This document shows positions 24,532 through 52,768 of a stretch of DNA of 64,000 nt, piece after piece. Source of the stretch: Nitrososphaeraceae archaeon (GTDB lineage: Archaea; Thermoproteota; Nitrososphaeria; Nitrososphaerales; Nitrososphaeraceae). The notes under the pieces are model-generated. The model saw only the letters and a program-made list of their open reading frames with translations, did not search any database and was not told the origin of the DNA. Each line of letters begins with the position of its first letter. Within the stretch, counting starts at the first letter, position 1. Where the stretch lies: the NCBI GenBank assembly GCA_035250975.1, contig DATFEP010000067.1, positions 1 to 64,000 on the forward strand, written 5' to 3'. A program made the translations under genes and the position numbers.

Positions 24532-25563
24532 TTATTTTGTATTCATCATCATTTTTATATTCCTTTTATAAGGAGGAAAAATGAGACCTTTTTCCGTTAT
24601 TATGGATGTGATAAGATCAGGAGGAGTAATATCAAACGCAGGATTTATTACTTTTATATTAGTAGGTGCAATTTTTTTTTCCCCTATCATTGTAACTTCT
24701 TCCTTAGAACGTTCTTCTATTACAATATCGTCAATATCATTCTTTAAATCAAAGCTAGATAATGGAGCAGCAACGTAAAACGGTATATTGTGGCTTTTAG
24801 CCAAAACAGCTATTTGGTAAGTTCCAATTTTGTTAAATACATGACCTGTATTCAAAATTCTGTCTGCACCCACTATAACATGTTTTATCCCTCCTTTTGT
24901 CATAAGATATCCAACCGCTGTGTCAGGAATGAGGCTAACATCAATATTGTCGTATTGCAATTCAAATGCCGTCAATCGAGAGCCCTGCATAACAGGTCTT
25001 GTTTCAGTAGCTATAACACGAATCTTCTTTCCAGATTCTTTAGCAGATCTTATTACACCTAATGCCGTTCCATATGCCACAGTTGCTAAAGATCCTGCAT
25101 TACAATGTGTCAATATGGTGTCACCATCTGAAAAAAGAATTTCTCCTATACTACCCATTGATCTATTAATAAAAATATCCTCTTCTGCCATTTGAATTGC
25201 TTCGTCTAACATGATTTCCTTCACTTTAGAAACGCTCTGAATATTTTGTATCTTTTGCATTAAACGATCGAGACCCCATTGAAGATTAATTGCGGTAGGC
25301 CTAGTTGCCCTAAGAAGGTTATATGCTTTGTTTAAATCTTTTAGTAATGACCCAATATTGCGTGAATTGCTTCTTCTAGCTGCAAGAACTAATCCAAAAG
25401 CTGCCGCTACTCCTATGGCAGGTGCACCTCTAACTATCATTTGTTTTATTGCTGCAGCAACATCTTTGTAGCTTTTACAATATACATATGATAACTTTGT
25501 AGGTAATTTAGTTTGATCAATTAATAATAGAGAATCGTCCTTCCATTGAACTGTAAGAAGCAT
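24532..25563 (-). CDS. mtnA: Methylthioribose-1-phosphate isomerase
   Basis: IDQTKLP, VRGAPAIG, TRPTAINL, THCNAGSLAT, ETRPVMQGSRLT, NPAFDITP. Confidence 0.93.
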   Translation of the reverse strand: MLLTVQWKDDSLLLIDQTKLPTKLSYVYCKSYKDVAAAIKQMIVRGAPAIGVAAAFGLVLAARRSNSRNIGSLLKDLNKAYNLLRATRPTAINLQWGLDRLMQKIQNIQSVSKVKEIMLDEAIQMAEEDIFINRSMGSIGEILFSDGDTILTHCNAGSLATVAYGTALGVIRSAKESGKKIRVIATETRPVMQGSRLTAFELQYDNIDVSLIPDTAVGYLMTKGGIKHVIVGADRILNTGHVFNKIGTYQIAVLAKSHNIPFYVAAPLSSFDLKNDIDDIVIEERSKEEVTMIGEKKIAPTNIKVINPAFDITPPDLITSIITEKGLIFPPYKRNIKMMMNTK

Positions 25564-25616
25564 ATTATTACCCTTCCTGTTAGACAATATGTGAAAAAGT
25601 AGAAATTTCACATATA

Positions 25617-28232: not shown

Positions 28233-28715
28233 TTAACCTCCCGTCATTTTAGTAAATTTATTAATCTTCTGCGTGGTAGATATATAATCCAAATTAGCCA
28301 GTGCCACTTCAGCAGATTTTCTTACTTCGCAGCTTTTATCATTCAATGCACGGGTTAGTGTTTCTCTCGCTTCCTCTGAGCCTATTACTCCTAAGGCTAT
28401 CGCTGCTTCATGTCGAACGAAAAAACTAGGGTCTTTATCTACTGCCTCACATAATGGTTTTATCCCGCTAGTAAACCCTAGCTGACCAAGAGAAAAAGCT
28501 GCTTCATGTCGCACCAATTTATCTAAATCATTTTTCAAAACAATGCTTATGGGTATTATAGATTCTTCACCTGCCATATCTGCAAATATACAGACAGCTC
28601 TAGTTCTAATGACGTGATCAGGATGAAAAAGTAAATTCCTGAAAAAATCTCTGTTATTGACGTTGAATTCGTTTTCCATCTTAGCAAGCATTAAAAGTCT
28701 CTCGTTACAATCCAT
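28233..28715 (-). CDS. HEAT-repeat protein with two His-Glu motifs (half-DOHH-like)
   Basis: LVRHEAAFSLGQ and FVRHEAAIALGVIG; about four HEAT repeats. Confidence 0.85.
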   Translation of the reverse strand: MDCNERLLMLAKMENEFNVNNRDFFRNLLFHPDHVIRTRAVCIFADMAGEESIIPISIVLKNDLDKLVRHEAAFSLGQLGFTSGIKPLCEAVDKDPSFFVRHEAAIALGVIGSEEARETLTRALNDKSCEVRKSAEVALANLDYISTTQKINKFTKMTGG

Positions 28716-28807: not shown

Positions 28808-29269
28808 ATGCGTGTAAGATATTGGCATCTTAACATTCAAGAAACACTTAAATGCAATTATCCACTGGAGAAAATAAATCACTGGGAAATAAAGTGCCTT
28901 TGTGGAGAATATCAGCATTTTGGAGTATTTTGGTTTAAGTATGGTACGCCTTTTGATAAAGAACCAGTTCATGGTATTTGTTTTTATTACAACGAAATAG
29001 AAGAAAAAATTGTAAAAGAATTAACAGAATATCTCTCAAGATTATTTGGTGGAAAGGTATTATTTAGACAGACTAGGGTTTTTCTTCAGGGATCCAAAGT
29101 ATTATTTGATCCTAAATCAATTGGAAAATTAGCTAATGATTTGAGTCTAAAATTTAATGTACCTGTAGAGATAACTATTGAATTAGAAAAAATATCAGAT
29201 GAAGAAATAACTGAAAACAATTTTAATTTTCCTGCTAAAAAGGCGTTGCCCATTGTAGGGACAGATTAA
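28808..29269 (+). CDS. Hypothetical protein
   Basis: 153-aa ORF with ATG, divergent from the HEAT gene. Confidence 0.8.
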   Translation: MRVRYWHLNIQETLKCNYPLEKINHWEIKCLCGEYQHFGVFWFKYGTPFDKEPVHGICFYYNEIEEKIVKELTEYLSRLFGGKVLFRQTRVFLQGSKVLFDPKSIGKLANDLSLKFNVPVEITIELEKISDEEITENNFNFPAKKALPIVGTD

Positions 29270-31181: not shown

Positions 31182-31724
31182 ATGGTGGGTATTAACAAGT
31201 TAGATTTAAAATCATTAATTGGAAACTATAAAGACTTTCCTAAGAAAGGAGTGATGTTTAGAGACGTTAATCCGCTTTTCAGAAACTGGAAAGTAACTCA
31301 AGAAATATCTAAAGAATTTATTAAGAAAAATGAGTCACAAGAAATAGATCTGATAGCAGGAATTGAGTCCAGAGGTTTTACTGTAGCCTCTTTACTCGCA
31401 GCAAATTTTAATAAAGGAATCGTCTTACTTAGAAAAGCAGGAAAACTTCCAGGAGATACAATAAGAAAAAATTATGAGATAGAATACGGCAATGCCATGA
31501 TTGAAATTCAGAGAGACGCTGTAAAAGAGGGGCAAAAAATTCTGATTGCGGATGATTTAATAGCCACCGGTGGTACTGCAGCTGCTGCCGCAGAATTAAT
31601 AGAAGAGATTGGAGGAAAAATTTTTGGATTTGCTTTTATTATTGAATTATCTTATCTTAGGGGAGCAGATAAACTCAGGGGTAAAGGTTATGAAGTTCGC
31701 TCATTGGTGAAATATGATGAATAG
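31182..31724 (+). CDS. apt: Adenine phosphoribosyltransferase
   Basis: DFPKKGVMFRD, GIESRGF, RKAGKLP, EYG, DDLIATGGT. Confidence 0.96.
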   Translation: MVGINKLDLKSLIGNYKDFPKKGVMFRDVNPLFRNWKVTQEISKEFIKKNESQEIDLIAGIESRGFTVASLLAANFNKGIVLLRKAGKLPGDTIRKNYEIEYGNAMIEIQRDAVKEGQKILIADDLIATGGTAAAAAELIEEIGGKIFGFAFIIELSYLRGADKLRGKGYEVRSLVKYDE

Positions 31725-32526
31725 AAAAATATCCGAGAATATCAACATAGGAATAATTGGAGGAACAGGAATTTATGATCCTAGTCTTTTCAATGTTATT
31801 GAAGAAAGAAAAGTTAATACCCCTTTTGGAGAACCTTCTGATAAAATAACAATATGTTCTTTAGGTGATAAAAAAATTGCTTTCATACCCCGACATGGAA
31901 AAGAACATAGATTACCGCCTCACAAAATAAATTTTCGTGCAAATATTTGGGCATTAAAAGATTTAGGGGTTAAAACAATTTTGGCTCCTTCAGCTGTAGG
32001 AAGTCTAAAAAAAGAATTTAAACCAGGGAATATCGCTATACCTGATCAATATATTGATTTTACCAAAAAAAGGGAATATACTTTTTATGACGGAGGGATA
32101 GTTTGCCACATCTCTCAGGCAGAACCATTTTGCAATGATCTTAGGGAAATCATTTGCCGACAACTAGAAAAGCTAAAATTTTCATATCATTATAAATGTA
32201 CTTATGTTTGTATCGAGGGTCCGCGATTCTCAACGAAAGCAGAATCGAATTATTATAGAAATGTATTAGACGCAAATATTATAGGTATGACCTTAATTCC
32301 GGAATGTATTTTGGCTAGGGAGATGGAAATTTGTTATCTTTCAATTGCGACTGTAACTGATTACGATGTCTGGGCAGACGTACATGTAACTTCTAGAGAG
32401 ATCGTAAAAACATTAAGTAAAAATGTTGAAAAATTAAGAACATTATTGTTAAATACGATACCAAAAATATCAGAAAAAAGAGACAATTGTAGTTGTGGCA
32501 AATCCCTTGAAAATGCTTTAATTTAA
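31714..32526 (+). CDS. mtnP: S-methyl-5'-thioadenosine phosphorylase
   Basis: GIIGGTG, PRHG, NFRANIWAL, SAVGSL, EGPRFST, GMT, VTDYD. Confidence 0.95.
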   Translation: MMNRKISENINIGIIGGTGIYDPSLFNVIEERKVNTPFGEPSDKITICSLGDKKIAFIPRHGKEHRLPPHKINFRANIWALKDLGVKTILAPSAVGSLKKEFKPGNIAIPDQYIDFTKKREYTFYDGGIVCHISQAEPFCNDLREIICRQLEKLKFSYHYKCTYVCIEGPRFSTKAESNYYRNVLDANIIGMTLIPECILAREMEICYLSIATVTDYDVWADVHVTSREIVKTLSKNVEKLRTLLLNTIPKISEKRDNCSCGKSLENALI

Positions 32527-49744: not shown

Positions 49745-50797
49745 ATGATCTCTGCAAGGATAGTTAAAACAAATGAATCTCTGATAATTGAAAATATGCA
49801 GCAACCAAAACCTGTACATACACAAGTTTTGGTACGAGTTAAAGCTGCTGGTATATGTCATAGTGACCTACACTTGTGGGAAGGAGGATACATTGGTTCT
49901 GGCGGAAAAATTATGAAGGTAGAGGATAGAGGAGTTCGTTTCCCATTAACACCAGGCCATGAGGTGGCAGGTGTCGTGGAGGACATAGGAGAATCAGTGT
50001 CATATTTTCAAAAAGGAGACAGCGTATTGGTTTATCCTTGGATTGGGGATGAAATATGTTCGTCATGCAAGTCAGGGGATGAACATTTATGTGATAAACC
50101 TAGAACATTAGGAATTTATCAAGATGGAGGCTACTCAGACTTAATTCTTGTTCCTAATTATAAATACCTAATAAAATTAGAACAAGATGATTTTGATTCT
50201 GCAGCTTCTCTTGCATGTTCTGGGTTAACTGCTTATACAGCAATAAAGAAAGCAGCTGCAACTCCCAATGATAATTTGGTAATCATTGGAGCTGGCGGTT
50301 TGGGATTGATGGCAGTGCAGATAGCAAAATCAATCACTAATTCCAAGATTTTGGTTGTAGATGTGGACAATGAGAAATTAAATGAAGCGAAGAGATTAGG
50401 TGCAGATCACATTATCAATTCCGTAGAGACAGATCCTATCAAGAATGTAAAGGATTTAACAGGAGGACAGGGTTGTGAAATAGTAATAGATTTTGTAAAT
50501 AACAGTAAAACCGCTCCGGTAGCTATGGATAGTTTGAGAAAGAGAGGAAAATATATAATGGTAGGGCTATTCGGAGGATCATTAGAATTGAATCTCCCAT
50601 TGGTTCCCTTGAGAGCATTTAATATAATGGGCGCTTATACTGGAAGAATTACAGACTTGGTTGAACTAGTATCACTTTATAAAAAAGGAAAGATAAGTTC
50701 AGTTGTATCAAAGAAATACAAACTGGATGCCGTGAATGATGCTCTCCAAGATTTAAAGGACAGAAAAATTATTGGAAGAGCAGTATTTAATCCTTAA
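49745..50797 (+). CDS. Zinc-dependent alcohol dehydrogenase
   Basis: GICHSD, GHE, C..C.......C structural site, IGAGGLG, GRAV. Confidence 0.94.
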   Translation: MISARIVKTNESLIIENMQQPKPVHTQVLVRVKAAGICHSDLHLWEGGYIGSGGKIMKVEDRGVRFPLTPGHEVAGVVEDIGESVSYFQKGDSVLVYPWIGDEICSSCKSGDEHLCDKPRTLGIYQDGGYSDLILVPNYKYLIKLEQDDFDSAASLACSGLTAYTAIKKAAATPNDNLVIIGAGGLGLMAVQIAKSITNSKILVVDVDNEKLNEAKRLGADHIINSVETDPIKNVKDLTGGQGCEIVIDFVNNSKTAPVAMDSLRKRGKYIMVGLFGGSLELNLPLVPLRAFNIMGAYTGRITDLVELVSLYKKGKISSVVSKKYKLDAVNDALQDLKDRKIIGRAVFNP

Positions 50798-50839
50798 AGA
50801 AAATTTCTAATCTTCTCTTTTTAATCTTATTTAAATGTA

Positions 50840-50998
50840 TCCCGCGAGCAGGATTTGCCCCAAATAACAATTGTTACTTTGTTTGAGCCTGCGACAATTC
50901 GGTATCTGTTAAATGTAAGCCTGATAGGCTGATCACAACGGTTAGCTAAACAGCCAACTTCTACAGCCGAAAGCTCTACCAGGCTGAGCTATCGCGGG
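50840..50998 (-). tRNA. tRNA-Tyr(GTA) with two introns (50904..50960 at 37/38; 50855..50882 at 58/59)
   Basis: Acceptor CCCGCGA/TCGCGGG (C1:G72); stem TTCGG/CCGAA around CTGTAG|A; both insertions form BHB motifs; spliced T loop is CTCAAAT. Confidence 0.92.
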
Positions 50999-51020
50999 AT
51001 ATCTGCTGTGAAACATTTAT

Positions 51021-51029
51021 TATATATAA
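51021..51029 (-). promoter_or_regulatory. Putative TATA box of tRNA-Tyr
   Basis: TTATATATA on the minus strand 23-31 nt upstream of the mature 5' end; the genome is AT-rich so specificity is low. Confidence 0.45.
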
Positions 51030-51061
51030 TTGATTCTAAGCAGATATTCAAAGATTCAATT

Positions 51062-52057
51062 TCAATTCGACATGAATTCAGATAAATACAATGAGGAATA
51101 AGTAATTATTTTATCTGCTCCAGATCTTTTAAGTGAACCCAAGAGATTTAAAAGAAAGTGAATCTCATCTATAACTCCCATCTTTGATGCTGCTTTTATC
51201 ATCGAATATTCGCCAGACACAATCTGGACTACTGTTGGAGCGGTGTATTTCTTACTAACTTGATAAACCAAATCTAAAGAAGTAATAGAAGGTTTTAACA
51301 TTATCATATCTGCACCTTCTCGAATATCAAATTCAATCTCCCTAAGCACCTCCATGGTGTTGCAAAAGGATACCTGATAGGAAGATTTGTCCAAGTATTT
51401 CTGAAAGTTCAGGAATACTCCAGATTGAAAGGGTTTATAAAGGGACGAGGATTGTTTTGCTGAAAATGAAAGTATTTGTGTTTTCTTATAACCCTCAGTA
51501 TCCAGTTTTTCCCTAATACAGCGAACTTGACCATCCATCATTGACGAAGGAGCTACAATATCGGCTCCAGCGATGGAATGACTTAACGCTATCTTAGCAA
51601 GATAATCGACGGTTTGATCATTTTTAATTTCATTATTTTTGCTCGTTATACCGCAATGTCCAGATTCGTTATAGTTACATAGACATATATCAGTAATCAA
51701 TTTCAGTTTATCTCCAAAATTAGATTTCAATGTTCTTATTGTCTTTTGAACAACTCCGTTTGCTGAAAACGCGAAAGAACCATCTCTTGTTTTATTTCTC
51801 GGTATTCCAAACAATATGATTGATTTAATCCCTTTATCTACTACATCTCCTACCGAATCGATTATTTTATGATAGGGAATTTGAAAAATTCCAGGCATTG
51901 ATCCAAGTTGATGATACCTTGCCATCTCAGTAATAAAAATTGGATAAATCAGGTCATCTTTATATAGTCTAAAATTTTTTGTCAGTTCCAAGTAAAATTT
52001 TTGGTCTGATTCTGACATGTTTAGTACACTCTTGATGTAATTATTTATAACTTCCAT
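51062..52057 (-). CDS. hemB: Porphobilinogen synthase (divergent)
   Basis: DLIYPIF, SMPG, DICLC.Y..SGHCG, GADIVAPSSMMDGQV, GADMIMLKP, VSGEYSMIKAA. Confidence 0.9.
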   Translation of the reverse strand: MEVINNYIKSVLNMSESDQKFYLELTKNFRLYKDDLIYPIFITEMARYHQLGSMPGIFQIPYHKIIDSVGDVVDKGIKSIILFGIPRNKTRDGSFAFSANGVVQKTIRTLKSNFGDKLKLITDICLCNYNESGHCGITSKNNEIKNDQTVDYLAKIALSHSIAGADIVAPSSMMDGQVRCIREKLDTEGYKKTQILSFSAKQSSSLYKPFQSGVFLNFQKYLDKSSYQVSFCNTMEVLREIEFDIREGADMIMLKPSITSLDLVYQVSKKYTAPTVVQIVSGEYSMIKAASKMGVIDEIHFLLNLLGSLKRSGADKIITYSSLYLSEFMSN

Positions 52058-52102
52058 GAAAGAAGATCATACAATTTGATTCAATGATAAATTGCTTCTT
52101 TG

Positions 52103-52768
52103 TCATTTTTTTTCATCTTCAGAGAGAGTCCAAGGAAACCATTTCCCAATAATCCTTCCCCAATCTATTTTCAAGTATAGATAAATTATTACTACTAATA
52201 CTATGATACTCAGTCCTATTCCAAGATAAAGATAAATAGGATCGGTATTTCCGGAAGTAAGAGAATCAACAACAGGACGACCTAGGAAAACGCTACCAAA
52301 AACAATTATTTCATTTAAAATAAATTTTCCTGAGAATGTAGATATGGCAAATTTCCATGGACTATACTTTGCTAAACCAAGTGGAATATATACCAAGTCG
52401 TCAGGTATTGGAGTCATTGCTGCTATAAACGCCCCAGGCCATCCATATTTGGATACTAATCTTTGCAGGGGCAACATCCTCTTCTTAGTTTTGGTACTCA
52501 AAATACGTCGTCCGTAATAACTTGCATAAAAAATAATCAATTTAGCTATAACGGCACCTACAGCACTCGCAATAGATACAAGATGAGGATCTAATTGTTT
52601 ATCGATTCCTGCCGTAAACAAAACAGGAAAATAAGGAACTGGTATAAATACAACTATACTTGCCAGAAAACTTATTATCAGGATTCCTAAATATCTTCCT
52701 GTGTTACCATATTCTTCTACGTATCCAAAATCTTGAAAGAATGAAAGCAGATCATTAGTATTTTCCAA
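52103..52768 (-). CDS. DedA/VTT (SNARE-associated) family membrane protein
   Basis: FIPVP, YYGR, KYG..GAFIAAMTPIPDD...IPLG..KYS.WKF. Confidence 0.85.
   Translation of the reverse strand: MENTNDLLSFFQDFGYVEEYGNTGRYLGILIISFLASIVVFIPVPYFPVLFTAGIDKQLDPHLVSIASAVGAVIAKLIIFYASYYGRRILSTKTKKRMLPLQRLVSKYGWPGAFIAAMTPIPDDLVYIPLGLAKYSPWKFAISTFSGKFILNEIIVFGSVFLGRPVVDSLTSGNTDPIYLYLGIGLSIIVLVVIIYLYLKIDWGRIIGKWFPWTLSEDEKK

Follow-up and report, generated by a model that had tools for sequence, protein, structure and literature searches.

The window analysed here is a stretch of 64,000 nucleotides (positions 1 to 64,000 of contig DATFEP010000067.1, assembly GCA_035250975.1, from a Nitrososphaeraceae archaeon), and the gene under study, P0001, lies on its minus strand at positions 28233..28715, with the stop codon at 28233–28235. 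The listing of open reading frames and the translation of the window give a single frame here, with an ATG start, which encodes a four-HEAT-repeat protein of 160 amino acids. Pfam detects HEAT_2 (1.1e-17) and HEAT_PBS (4.8e-13) in the protein, i.e. the PBS/E-Z-type HEAT fold of deoxyhypusine hydroxylase (DOHH). The first-pass annotation of this DNA had proposed a half-size DOHH carrying two His-Glu pairs, H70-E71 and H102-E103, 32 residues apart, and translation confirms the length, the pairs and their distance. Both pairs are encoded by CAT GAA on the minus strand. H70-E71 (28503–28508) lies within LVRHEAAFSLGQ and belongs to a first block, L67–G80 (LVRHEAAFSLGQLG; 28476..28517, minus strand); H102-E103 (28407–28412) lies within FVRHEAAIALGVIG, which is the second block, F99–G112 (28380..28421, minus strand). 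Two further features of the same strand frame these blocks: an N-terminal helix (residues 3–18; 28662..28709), which bears the invariant residues M13 and E14, and a family-specific C-terminal tail, F154–G160 (F-T-K-M-T-G-G; 28236..28256). The AlphaFold2 model of the monomer, built on an alignment of 23 sequences, is all-helical, with a predicted local distance difference test score (pLDDT) of 94.9; it consists of helical hairpins preceded by the helix 3–18 and ends in a long helix that reaches the C terminus. In its own genome (2.49 Mb, 94.6% complete) the protein is present in a single copy and is the sole HEAT_2 match. It is thus not a one-chain DOHH with eight repeats and four His-Glu motifs: it has four repeats and two His-Glu motifs, and the genome holds no second copy.

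When the single sequence is searched against the Protein Data Bank (PDB), human DOHH (PDB entry 4d4z) is the best natural match (E = 7.5e-18), in two stretches that place query residues 37–145 on chain residues 29–137; with the family profile, human DOHH scores 105 bits. Only artificial alphaRep proteins and designed HEAT proteins rank above it, the alphaReps scoring highest because they are made of idealised consensus repeats. The other E-values are 0.00097 for MTH187, 0.0043 for YibA and 0.077 for CpcE (PDB entry 5n3u). An hhalign comparison of the family profile with a profile of six eukaryotic DOHH sequences gives a probability of 99.4%, with E = 6.9e-22 and 38% identity over 112 columns. 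This alignment runs over residues 37–148 of 160 and takes in all four repeats of the C half of DOHH, so that the match to one DOHH half is now borne out by a computed alignment. BLASTP against one eukaryotic DOHH also recovers both halves, the C half at 35% over 118 amino acids (1e-19) and the N half at 39% over 94 amino acids (3e-7). At the level of the fold, a Foldseek search with the monomer gives template modelling (TM) scores, normalized by the query, of 0.73 for 4d4z, 0.70–0.72 for alphaReps and 0.53 for CpcE.

These values also bear on whether the protein could be a bilin lyase of the CpcE/F or NblB type, or a phycobilisome-related or ordinary HEAT protein, as its HEAT_PBS match and weak NCBIfam matches to NblB, CpcE, CpeY and CpcF might suggest. 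DOHH is by far the better match, both by E-value (7.5e-18 compared with 0.077 for CpcE) and by fold, which settles in favour of DOHH the comparison with CpcE/F-type lyases that the first-pass annotation had left pending. Membership of the lyase families was rejected on the NCBIfam scores, which are 32.4 bits for NblB (cut-off 300), 24.9 for CpcE (cut-off 330), 20.9 for CpeY (cut-off 600) and 16.4 for CpcF (cut-off 220). Archaea of the class Nitrososphaeria are not known to have phycobiliproteins. We therefore regard this identity as very improbable.

The likeness to DOHH (yeast Lia1; human PDB entries 4D4Z and 4D50) goes further than the PBS/E-Z-type repeats found in both. Each four-repeat unit carries two His-Glu motifs at identical repeat positions, the flanks R-H-E-A-A-[FY]-x-L-G-Q and V-R-H-E-A-A-x-A-L-G-x-I-G are common to both, and all four repeats of a half can be aligned. 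The first block thereby corresponds to the HE-A-[AV]-[YF]-x-LGQ motif at the start of each DOHH half, and the second block the VRHEAA-x-ALG-x-IG motif that comes second in each half. The picture of eukaryotic DOHH on which this comparison was originally based proved sound: seven relatives of about 300 amino acids, one of which is named deoxyhypusine hydroxylase in UniRef, have four His-Glu motifs each, and the spacing within a half is 33 in the five eukaryotic relatives of this size that were measured. The archaeal protein differs in being a single half (160 amino acids compared with about 290–340), in lacking the inter-half linker with its (S/K)-x-D-P-A motif and in having an additional N-terminal helix. 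The generic PBS-type HEAT proteins (alphaRep, MTH187 1TE4, YibA 1OYZ and CpcE/F), the group that comes top by E-value, share the repeat fold and its consensus, but they have no His-Glu pair at the variable positions and they separate from the family in trees (see below). Taken together, the sequence comparisons support a kinship to DOHH beyond generic HEAT likeness, and the protein is very probably a genuine DOHH relative.

A word-indexed search yielded 2330 related clusters of 88–280 amino acids, the best 120 of which are 63–94% identical to the query and 148–215 amino acids long; the named entries among these 120 are Nitrososphaera or Nitrososphaeraceae. A chance open reading frame is ruled out by the strong conservation over several hundred clusters. 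When the best 120 of the 2330 clusters are combined with the query and two representatives, both His-Glu pairs are present at a spacing of 32 in all 123 proteins, the residue before a His-Glu pair being K or I instead of R in two of them. Both pairs are likewise found in the 38 intact orthologues that were cut from genomes (38/38), and the conservation of the two motifs that the half-size DOHH proposal demanded is thus complete in both sets. The C terminus is equally constant: G-G preceded by F-x-[KR]-x-T closes all 123 homologues, and all 38 genomic orthologues end in G-G, 37 of them as T-G-G and one (L041) as P-G-G. In the alignment of 23 sequences, 47 positions are invariant, among them M13, E14, C42 and T158-G159-G160; in the first block L67 to Q78 and G80 are invariant in 23/23 sequences, and in the second block F99 to A105, L108, G109, V110 and G112.

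To set this against a background, 160 generic long PBS-type HEAT proteins were examined, with 1461 repeats fitting the repeat pattern. His-Glu occupies the two variable positions in seven of the 1461 repeats, and adjacent His-Glu repeats occur in a single protein of the 160, P0183 (1029 amino acids), which has three in a row (706, 736 and 767). The His-Glu motif pair exceeds chance, and its invariance, compared with a generic rate of 0.5%, points to a functional site.

Two copies of the protein were then modelled as a dimer from the family's own alignment, with two Fe included but unscored. The interface score ipSAE was 0.91, 0.91 and 0.85 in three runs, whereas the highest of three controls scored 0.00; at least 96% of the contacts were common to the runs, and the pLDDT was at least 94. 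The predicted interface is symmetrical and consists of H70, E71, F74, F99, H102 and E130, the N-terminal helix and the tail (154 and 157–160). Residue 99 contacts residues 99 and 102 of the partner across the twofold axis. In the N-terminal helix the interface residues are 3, 6–7, 10–11, 13–14 and 17–18, with 14 and 17 pairing with residue 154 of the partner, while in the tail residues 157 and 159 contact C42 of the partner and 159 also contacts its E71. The model is thus consistent with the suggestion of the first-pass annotation that a homodimer could rebuild the site of DOHH, in that it predicts a pairing with the His-Glu residues in the interface.

A natural counterpart of such a pair came from an exhaustive library search. 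P0146 is a tandem fusion of 363 amino acids, with two family halves and four His-Glu motifs, and has ahead of them an N-terminal hydrophobic stretch whose model is poor. This protein was one of three informative proteins (P0146, P0171 and P0185) among the 39467 matches of the whole-library search at E of 0.001 or less, most of which are long multi-repeat HEAT proteins. The single-sequence model of P0146 (pLDDT 74, predicted TM score 0.71) matches human DOHH 4d4z with a TM score of 0.63 by query and 0.78 by target, and the other chains listed do not exceed 0.40 by query. Within a Nitrosopumilaceae-type subgroup its two halves are each other's nearest relatives, which makes the fusion recent and specific to one lineage, an independent repeat of the eukaryotic architecture. 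The T-G-G ending has been lost from the first half and G-G is retained in the second, a pattern that fits a clasp role of the tail and is no proof of it. P0146 is known from the protein entry alone, so that a gene-calling artefact is possible; read as a sequence, it gives one independent hint of paired halves. A separate search for longer proteins gave 20 matches, which were giant HEAT proteins and eukaryote-type DOHH of about 300 amino acids, and found no archaeal full-length form.

We propose, with a probability that we put at roughly 0.5, that the protein, as a half-size member of the DOHH lineage, works as a homodimeric di-iron deoxyhypusine hydroxylase. One chain would correspond to one four-repeat half of the eukaryotic enzyme and bear the two His-Glu motifs of that half. 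Two chains would pair about a twofold axis, the N-terminal helix and the T-G-G tail of each clasping the partner and so replacing the covalent linker. The dimer would gather four His and four Glu residues and would bind two irons, and this di-iron site would use O2 to hydroxylate the deoxyhypusine that deoxyhypusine synthase (DHS) places on the conserved lysine of the initiation factor aIF5A, giving hypusine. The interpretation given in the first-pass annotation is, as a whole, partly supported.

The genes that such an enzyme would depend on are present. The genome encodes aIF5A (145.8 bits to TIGR00037), with the loop S-K-P-G-K-H-G that holds the modified lysine, and two adjacent, divergent genes of the deoxyhypusine-synthase family (353.9 and 276.5 bits to Pfam DS), which lie outside the window on contig C16: L001 at 50583–51437 on the minus strand and L002 at 51685–52587 on the plus strand. 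One of the two may be DHS and the other a homospermidine-synthase-like paralogue.

The distribution of the gene was followed in 401 genomes sampled evenly across the phylum, a score of at least 165 bits defining an orthologue. Orthologues were found in 69 genomes, and the next best scores do not exceed 65 bits. By family, they are present in 3/3 genomes of the window's own family, 54/56 of f2, 1/1 of f3, 9/17 of f12 (where one further copy is broken by a stop) and two of f31, and no match at E of 1e-5 or better was found in f10 (0/32), f18 (0/24), f5 (0/16), f21 (0/15) or f15 (0/12). By source name, the f2-type orthologues are from Nitrosopumilaceae and the f12-type orthologues from Candidatus Caldarchaeum and Caldiarchaeum subterraneum. 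Within the window's own order, family members are about 63–70% identical to the window protein and the gene occurs in 58/60 sampled genomes, a near-universal presence, as expected for a housekeeping partner of a conserved protein. The host background is one of O2 use: a match to the haem–copper oxidase COX1 is found in 69/69 genomes with an orthologue, compared with 84/332 of the others, an association that is descriptive only because the genomes are related. In family f21, COX1 is found in 15/15 genomes and the orthologue in none.

Could the protein instead be a non-catalytic HEAT adaptor, or a metal-binding or sensing protein, in which the His-Glu pairs are structural or serve metal storage and the likeness to DOHH reflects descent only? 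PBS-type HEAT proteins are for the most part binding modules, artificial alphaRep binders lead the matches in both sequence and fold, and the gene is missing or broken in some relatives. The broken copy is a 39th locus (L043; G381:C30, an f12 genome), in which the match is split into 64.8 and 32.9 bits around an internal TAG stop, and together with the f12 and f31 genomes without the gene it suggests that the gene is dispensable outside the ammonia oxidisers. A structural or storage role fits less well with His-Glu pairs that are invariant in 123/123 and 38/38 proteins and occur in 0.5% of generic repeats, with a predicted interface in which the pairs lie at the dyad, as the residues of a shared metal site would, and with the confinement of the gene to genomes with an oxidase match. 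We consider such a role improbable.

The place of the family relative to the duplication that produced eukaryotic DOHH was assessed by a tree (IQ-TREE, LG+C20) of 57 rows and 144 columns. The rows are 18 family members, the two halves of P0146, 13 Thermoplasmatota-type halves, two Heimdallarchaeota halves, five N and five C halves of eukaryotes and the 12 best-matching generic HEAT windows. All 45 His-Glu rows stand apart from the 12 generic windows, with a support of 96/90; the latter come mostly from idealised long repeat proteins, which may aid their clustering. The support is 96/78 after removal of the ten R-H-E-A-A motif columns, and 96/87 when two short HEAT proteins of the same order that lack His-Glu and six rows of a second paralogue (described below) are added. 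Among the His-Glu rows, the Nitrososphaeria family forms a group with good support (99/94), next to which all other rows, both eukaryotic halves included, make up a weakly supported group (83/38). The tree thus makes the family a deep relative of DOHH and does not mark it as an ancestor of the duplication. A pre-duplication DOHH is accordingly a hypothesis on which the tree does not decide.

Other archaea carry half-size proteins that are closer to the eukaryotic enzyme. A scan of one genome per prokaryotic species with a eukaryotic DOHH alignment as the query gave 30 confirmed loci; its patterns are unable to match the Nitrososphaeria family, so the absence of the latter from the 30 loci is meaningless. 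Twenty-seven of the loci (L044–L064, L066, L068–L070 and L072) are from Poseidoniales, Thermoplasmatota or ‘euryarchaeote’ metagenome genomes. Like the Nitrososphaeria protein, these halves are archaeal; each has about 155–160 amino acids and a single unit of four repeats that carries two His-Glu motifs, and they belong to the same His-Glu clade. They differ in lacking the T-G-G tail and in having an N-terminal S-V-D-P-A-P motif like the linker between the halves of the eukaryotic enzyme; in tblastn, their best segments are 37–49% identical to eukaryotic DOHH, and the motif spacing is 33 in 18 and 32 in eight of the 26 loci with a readable pair. The 13 that were included in the tree lie with or beside the eukaryotic C halves, some grouped at 92/84, and this Poseidoniales/Thermoplasmatota family is closer to eukaryotic DOHH than the Nitrososphaeria family is. 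The ESM Atlas label ‘Putative deoxyhypusine monooxygenase (DOHH)’ on a Methanobacteriota-labelled cluster is an automatic name and a lead only.

A Heimdallarchaeota metagenome protein (L071:3001–3723; a frame of 257 amino acids) is in the same clade and has four His-Glu motifs with a spacing of 32 in each half. It differs from the half-size proteins in having two halves per chain, as in eukaryotes; its branches are long, its halves group together (100/96) and it reaches only 29% identity to eukaryotic DOHH in its best segment. Among the remaining loci of the scan, L067:3001–3845, from a Verrucomicrobiaceae metagenome genome, has a DOHH-like match over 845 bases, in which the one open frame that contains a His-Glu pair ends shortly beyond the second motif. 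This has the look of an interrupted gene or of one derived from a eukaryote, and is possibly a contamination.

A second, very divergent paralogue of about 165–175 amino acids was observed in Nitrosopumilaceae-type genomes (L075–L080, from G203, G293, G044, G221, G076 and G251). All six copies fetched have two His-Glu motifs, V-[KR]-H-E-A-[CS]-[YF]-Q-I-A-A-R-N and [KR]-H-E-A-x-E-x-L-G-L-M-R, with a spacing of 32 and without a T-G-G tail. Neither the self-match nor the HEAT_2 search found it in the window's own genome. It could be a heterodimer partner or act on another substrate.

This brings us to the main competitor of the hydroxylase proposal, namely a DOHH-like di-metal homodimer whose substrate is not deoxyhypusine on aIF5A but a small molecule, a polyamine or the side chain of some other protein, or which serves redox chemistry or O2 handling in a way special to Nitrososphaeria. 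The family branches outside the group that unites the eukaryotic halves with the Heimdallarchaeota protein and with the Thermoplasmatota halves, and DOHH has neither its T-G-G tail, nor its C42, nor its spacing of 32. The second His-Glu paralogue in the same order, the lack of a neighbourhood link to DHS or aIF5A and the absence of such a protein from hypusine-bearing Sulfolobus can all be read in the same sense. On the other side, the four His-Glu positions of a dimer can all be aligned to DOHH, as can the G-Q that follows the first motif and each of the four repeats; the gene context suggests no alternative substrate, and eukaryotic DOHH is described as dedicated to eIF5A (PMC8153317). We judge a different substrate or role rather unlikely, with a greater share of the probability than the adaptor.

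Returning to the homodimeric deoxyhypusine hydroxylase, several observations weigh against it. Generic PBS-HEAT similarity inflates all of the scores, and the fold of the monomer does not separate DOHH from artificial alphaReps. The motif spacing is 32 in the archaeal family compared with 33 in eukaryotic DOHH; the residue three positions before the second His is Phe (Ile in Caldarchaeum-type copies), where eukaryotes have Met; and the invariant C42 and T-G-G tail are peculiar to the archaeal family, the tail being absent from eukaryotic DOHH. The calibration of the dimer prediction, in which 20/30 solved homo-pairs and 1/23 single chains reached the mark, is only roughly applicable because our own alignment and a ligand were used. 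Moreover, since DOHH halves form a solved structure, the success of the dimer may show likeness and not be independent evidence, and the models may have drawn on the solved DOHH structure both here and in giving the fusion its DOHH-like fold. The divergent second paralogue shows that His-Glu proteins may not be confined to a single role. Beyond the order of the ammonia oxidisers the occurrence of the gene is patchy (nine intact copies and one broken copy among 17 f12 genomes, and two strong matches in f31), and the COX1 match in the window's own genome is weak (9.4e-6), the genome being 94.6% complete. When the open frames of 66 loci (L005–L072 and the DHS and aIF5A loci of the own genome) were clustered, neither DHS nor aIF5A turned up next to the gene in any of the 38 loci of the Nitrososphaeria type and 27 of the Thermoplasmatota type. 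Finally, a control search with HEAT_2 gave a match in eight of 14 named genomes and none in Sulfolobus acidocaldarius, an archaeon reported to contain hypusine (Bartig, 1990, as quoted in PMC5178350). Archaea would therefore have another route of hydroxylation, and the family need not be a hydroxylase; nor can it explain the hypusine of Sulfolobales or be the general archaeal answer.

Hypusine on a/eIF5A is among the most specific protein modifications known. According to papers from 2016, 2018 and 2021, archaea have no known orthologue of DOHH and the way in which they carry out the hydroxylation is unsolved, in line with the premise of the first-pass annotation; a 2026 review says no more than that some archaea appear to rely on deoxyhypusine. 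In the literature searched, which leaves most subscription journals and supplements outside, so that a published mention may exist, we found no proposal of an archaeal DOHH, and no paper on hypusine in Thaumarchaeota or on deoxyhypusine hydroxylase in Asgard archaea; one paper that treats a HEAT orthologous group concerns an unrelated one. The idea is not wholly new to databases, as 17 of the 120 listed homologues bear the IMG name ‘deoxyhypusine monooxygenase’ (NCBI uses ‘HEAT repeat protein’), but the half-size architecture is unrecognized in the literature searched. The protein is thus a candidate for the enzyme that archaea are said to lack, and its conservation in cultivable, globally abundant ammonia-oxidising archaea makes the question of archaeal hydroxylation directly testable.

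We may wonder at this stage whether the half-size and fused forms belong to a single history. DOHH might have arisen in aerobic archaea as a homodimer of four HEAT repeats and two His-Glu motifs per chain, with a shared di-iron site; the half-size form would still make true hypusine in Nitrososphaeria and in Poseidoniales/Thermoplasmatota; tandem fusion would have been repeated, in the Nitrosopumilaceae-type P0146, in Heimdallarchaeota and in eukaryotes; and the T-G-G tail would act as a swapped clasp, extending to the active site of the partner and standing in for the covalent linker. Taken jointly, these claims are tentative and stand on the doubtful side. The hydroxylase proposal itself, if it holds, would reveal the route from a homodimeric unit of four repeats to a di-iron oxygenase of eight and would link hydroxylation to the aerobic lineages of archaea; Sulfolobus, having no such protein, would stand apart as an unsolved case. 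It would also supply a minimal, symmetrical scaffold on which to study the peroxo-diiron chemistry of DOHH, which is unusually stable.

As regards the surroundings of the gene, its neighbours are conserved only within families, an example being a thioredoxin-like frame found in 20 loci. In the window the neighbours are PurP-like, UDP-glucose dehydrogenase, IF-2B/MtnA-like, adenine phosphoribosyltransferase-like (APRT) and methylthioadenosine (MTA) phosphorylase-like genes. Three of them lie within 4 kb of the HEAT gene: the IF-2B/MtnA-like gene (24532–25611, minus strand), the APRT-like gene (31182–31724, plus strand) and the MTA-phosphorylase-like gene (31714–32526, plus strand). MtnA-, APRT- and MTA-phosphorylase-like functions salvage a by-product of polyamine synthesis, but this arrangement is not conserved in the other loci and we therefore give the link to polyamines no weight.

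RNA-library contigs from one soil study (X6 and X7) match parts of the gene body at 90–99% likeness, and those of a run from another study (X1) match the 3′ end only; they were not used as evidence because they come from relatives and are no proof of transcription. Divergent from the HEAT gene, an open reading frame of 153 amino acids (28808–29269, plus strand) belongs to no Pfam family, and RNA-library contigs of three studies cover part of it.

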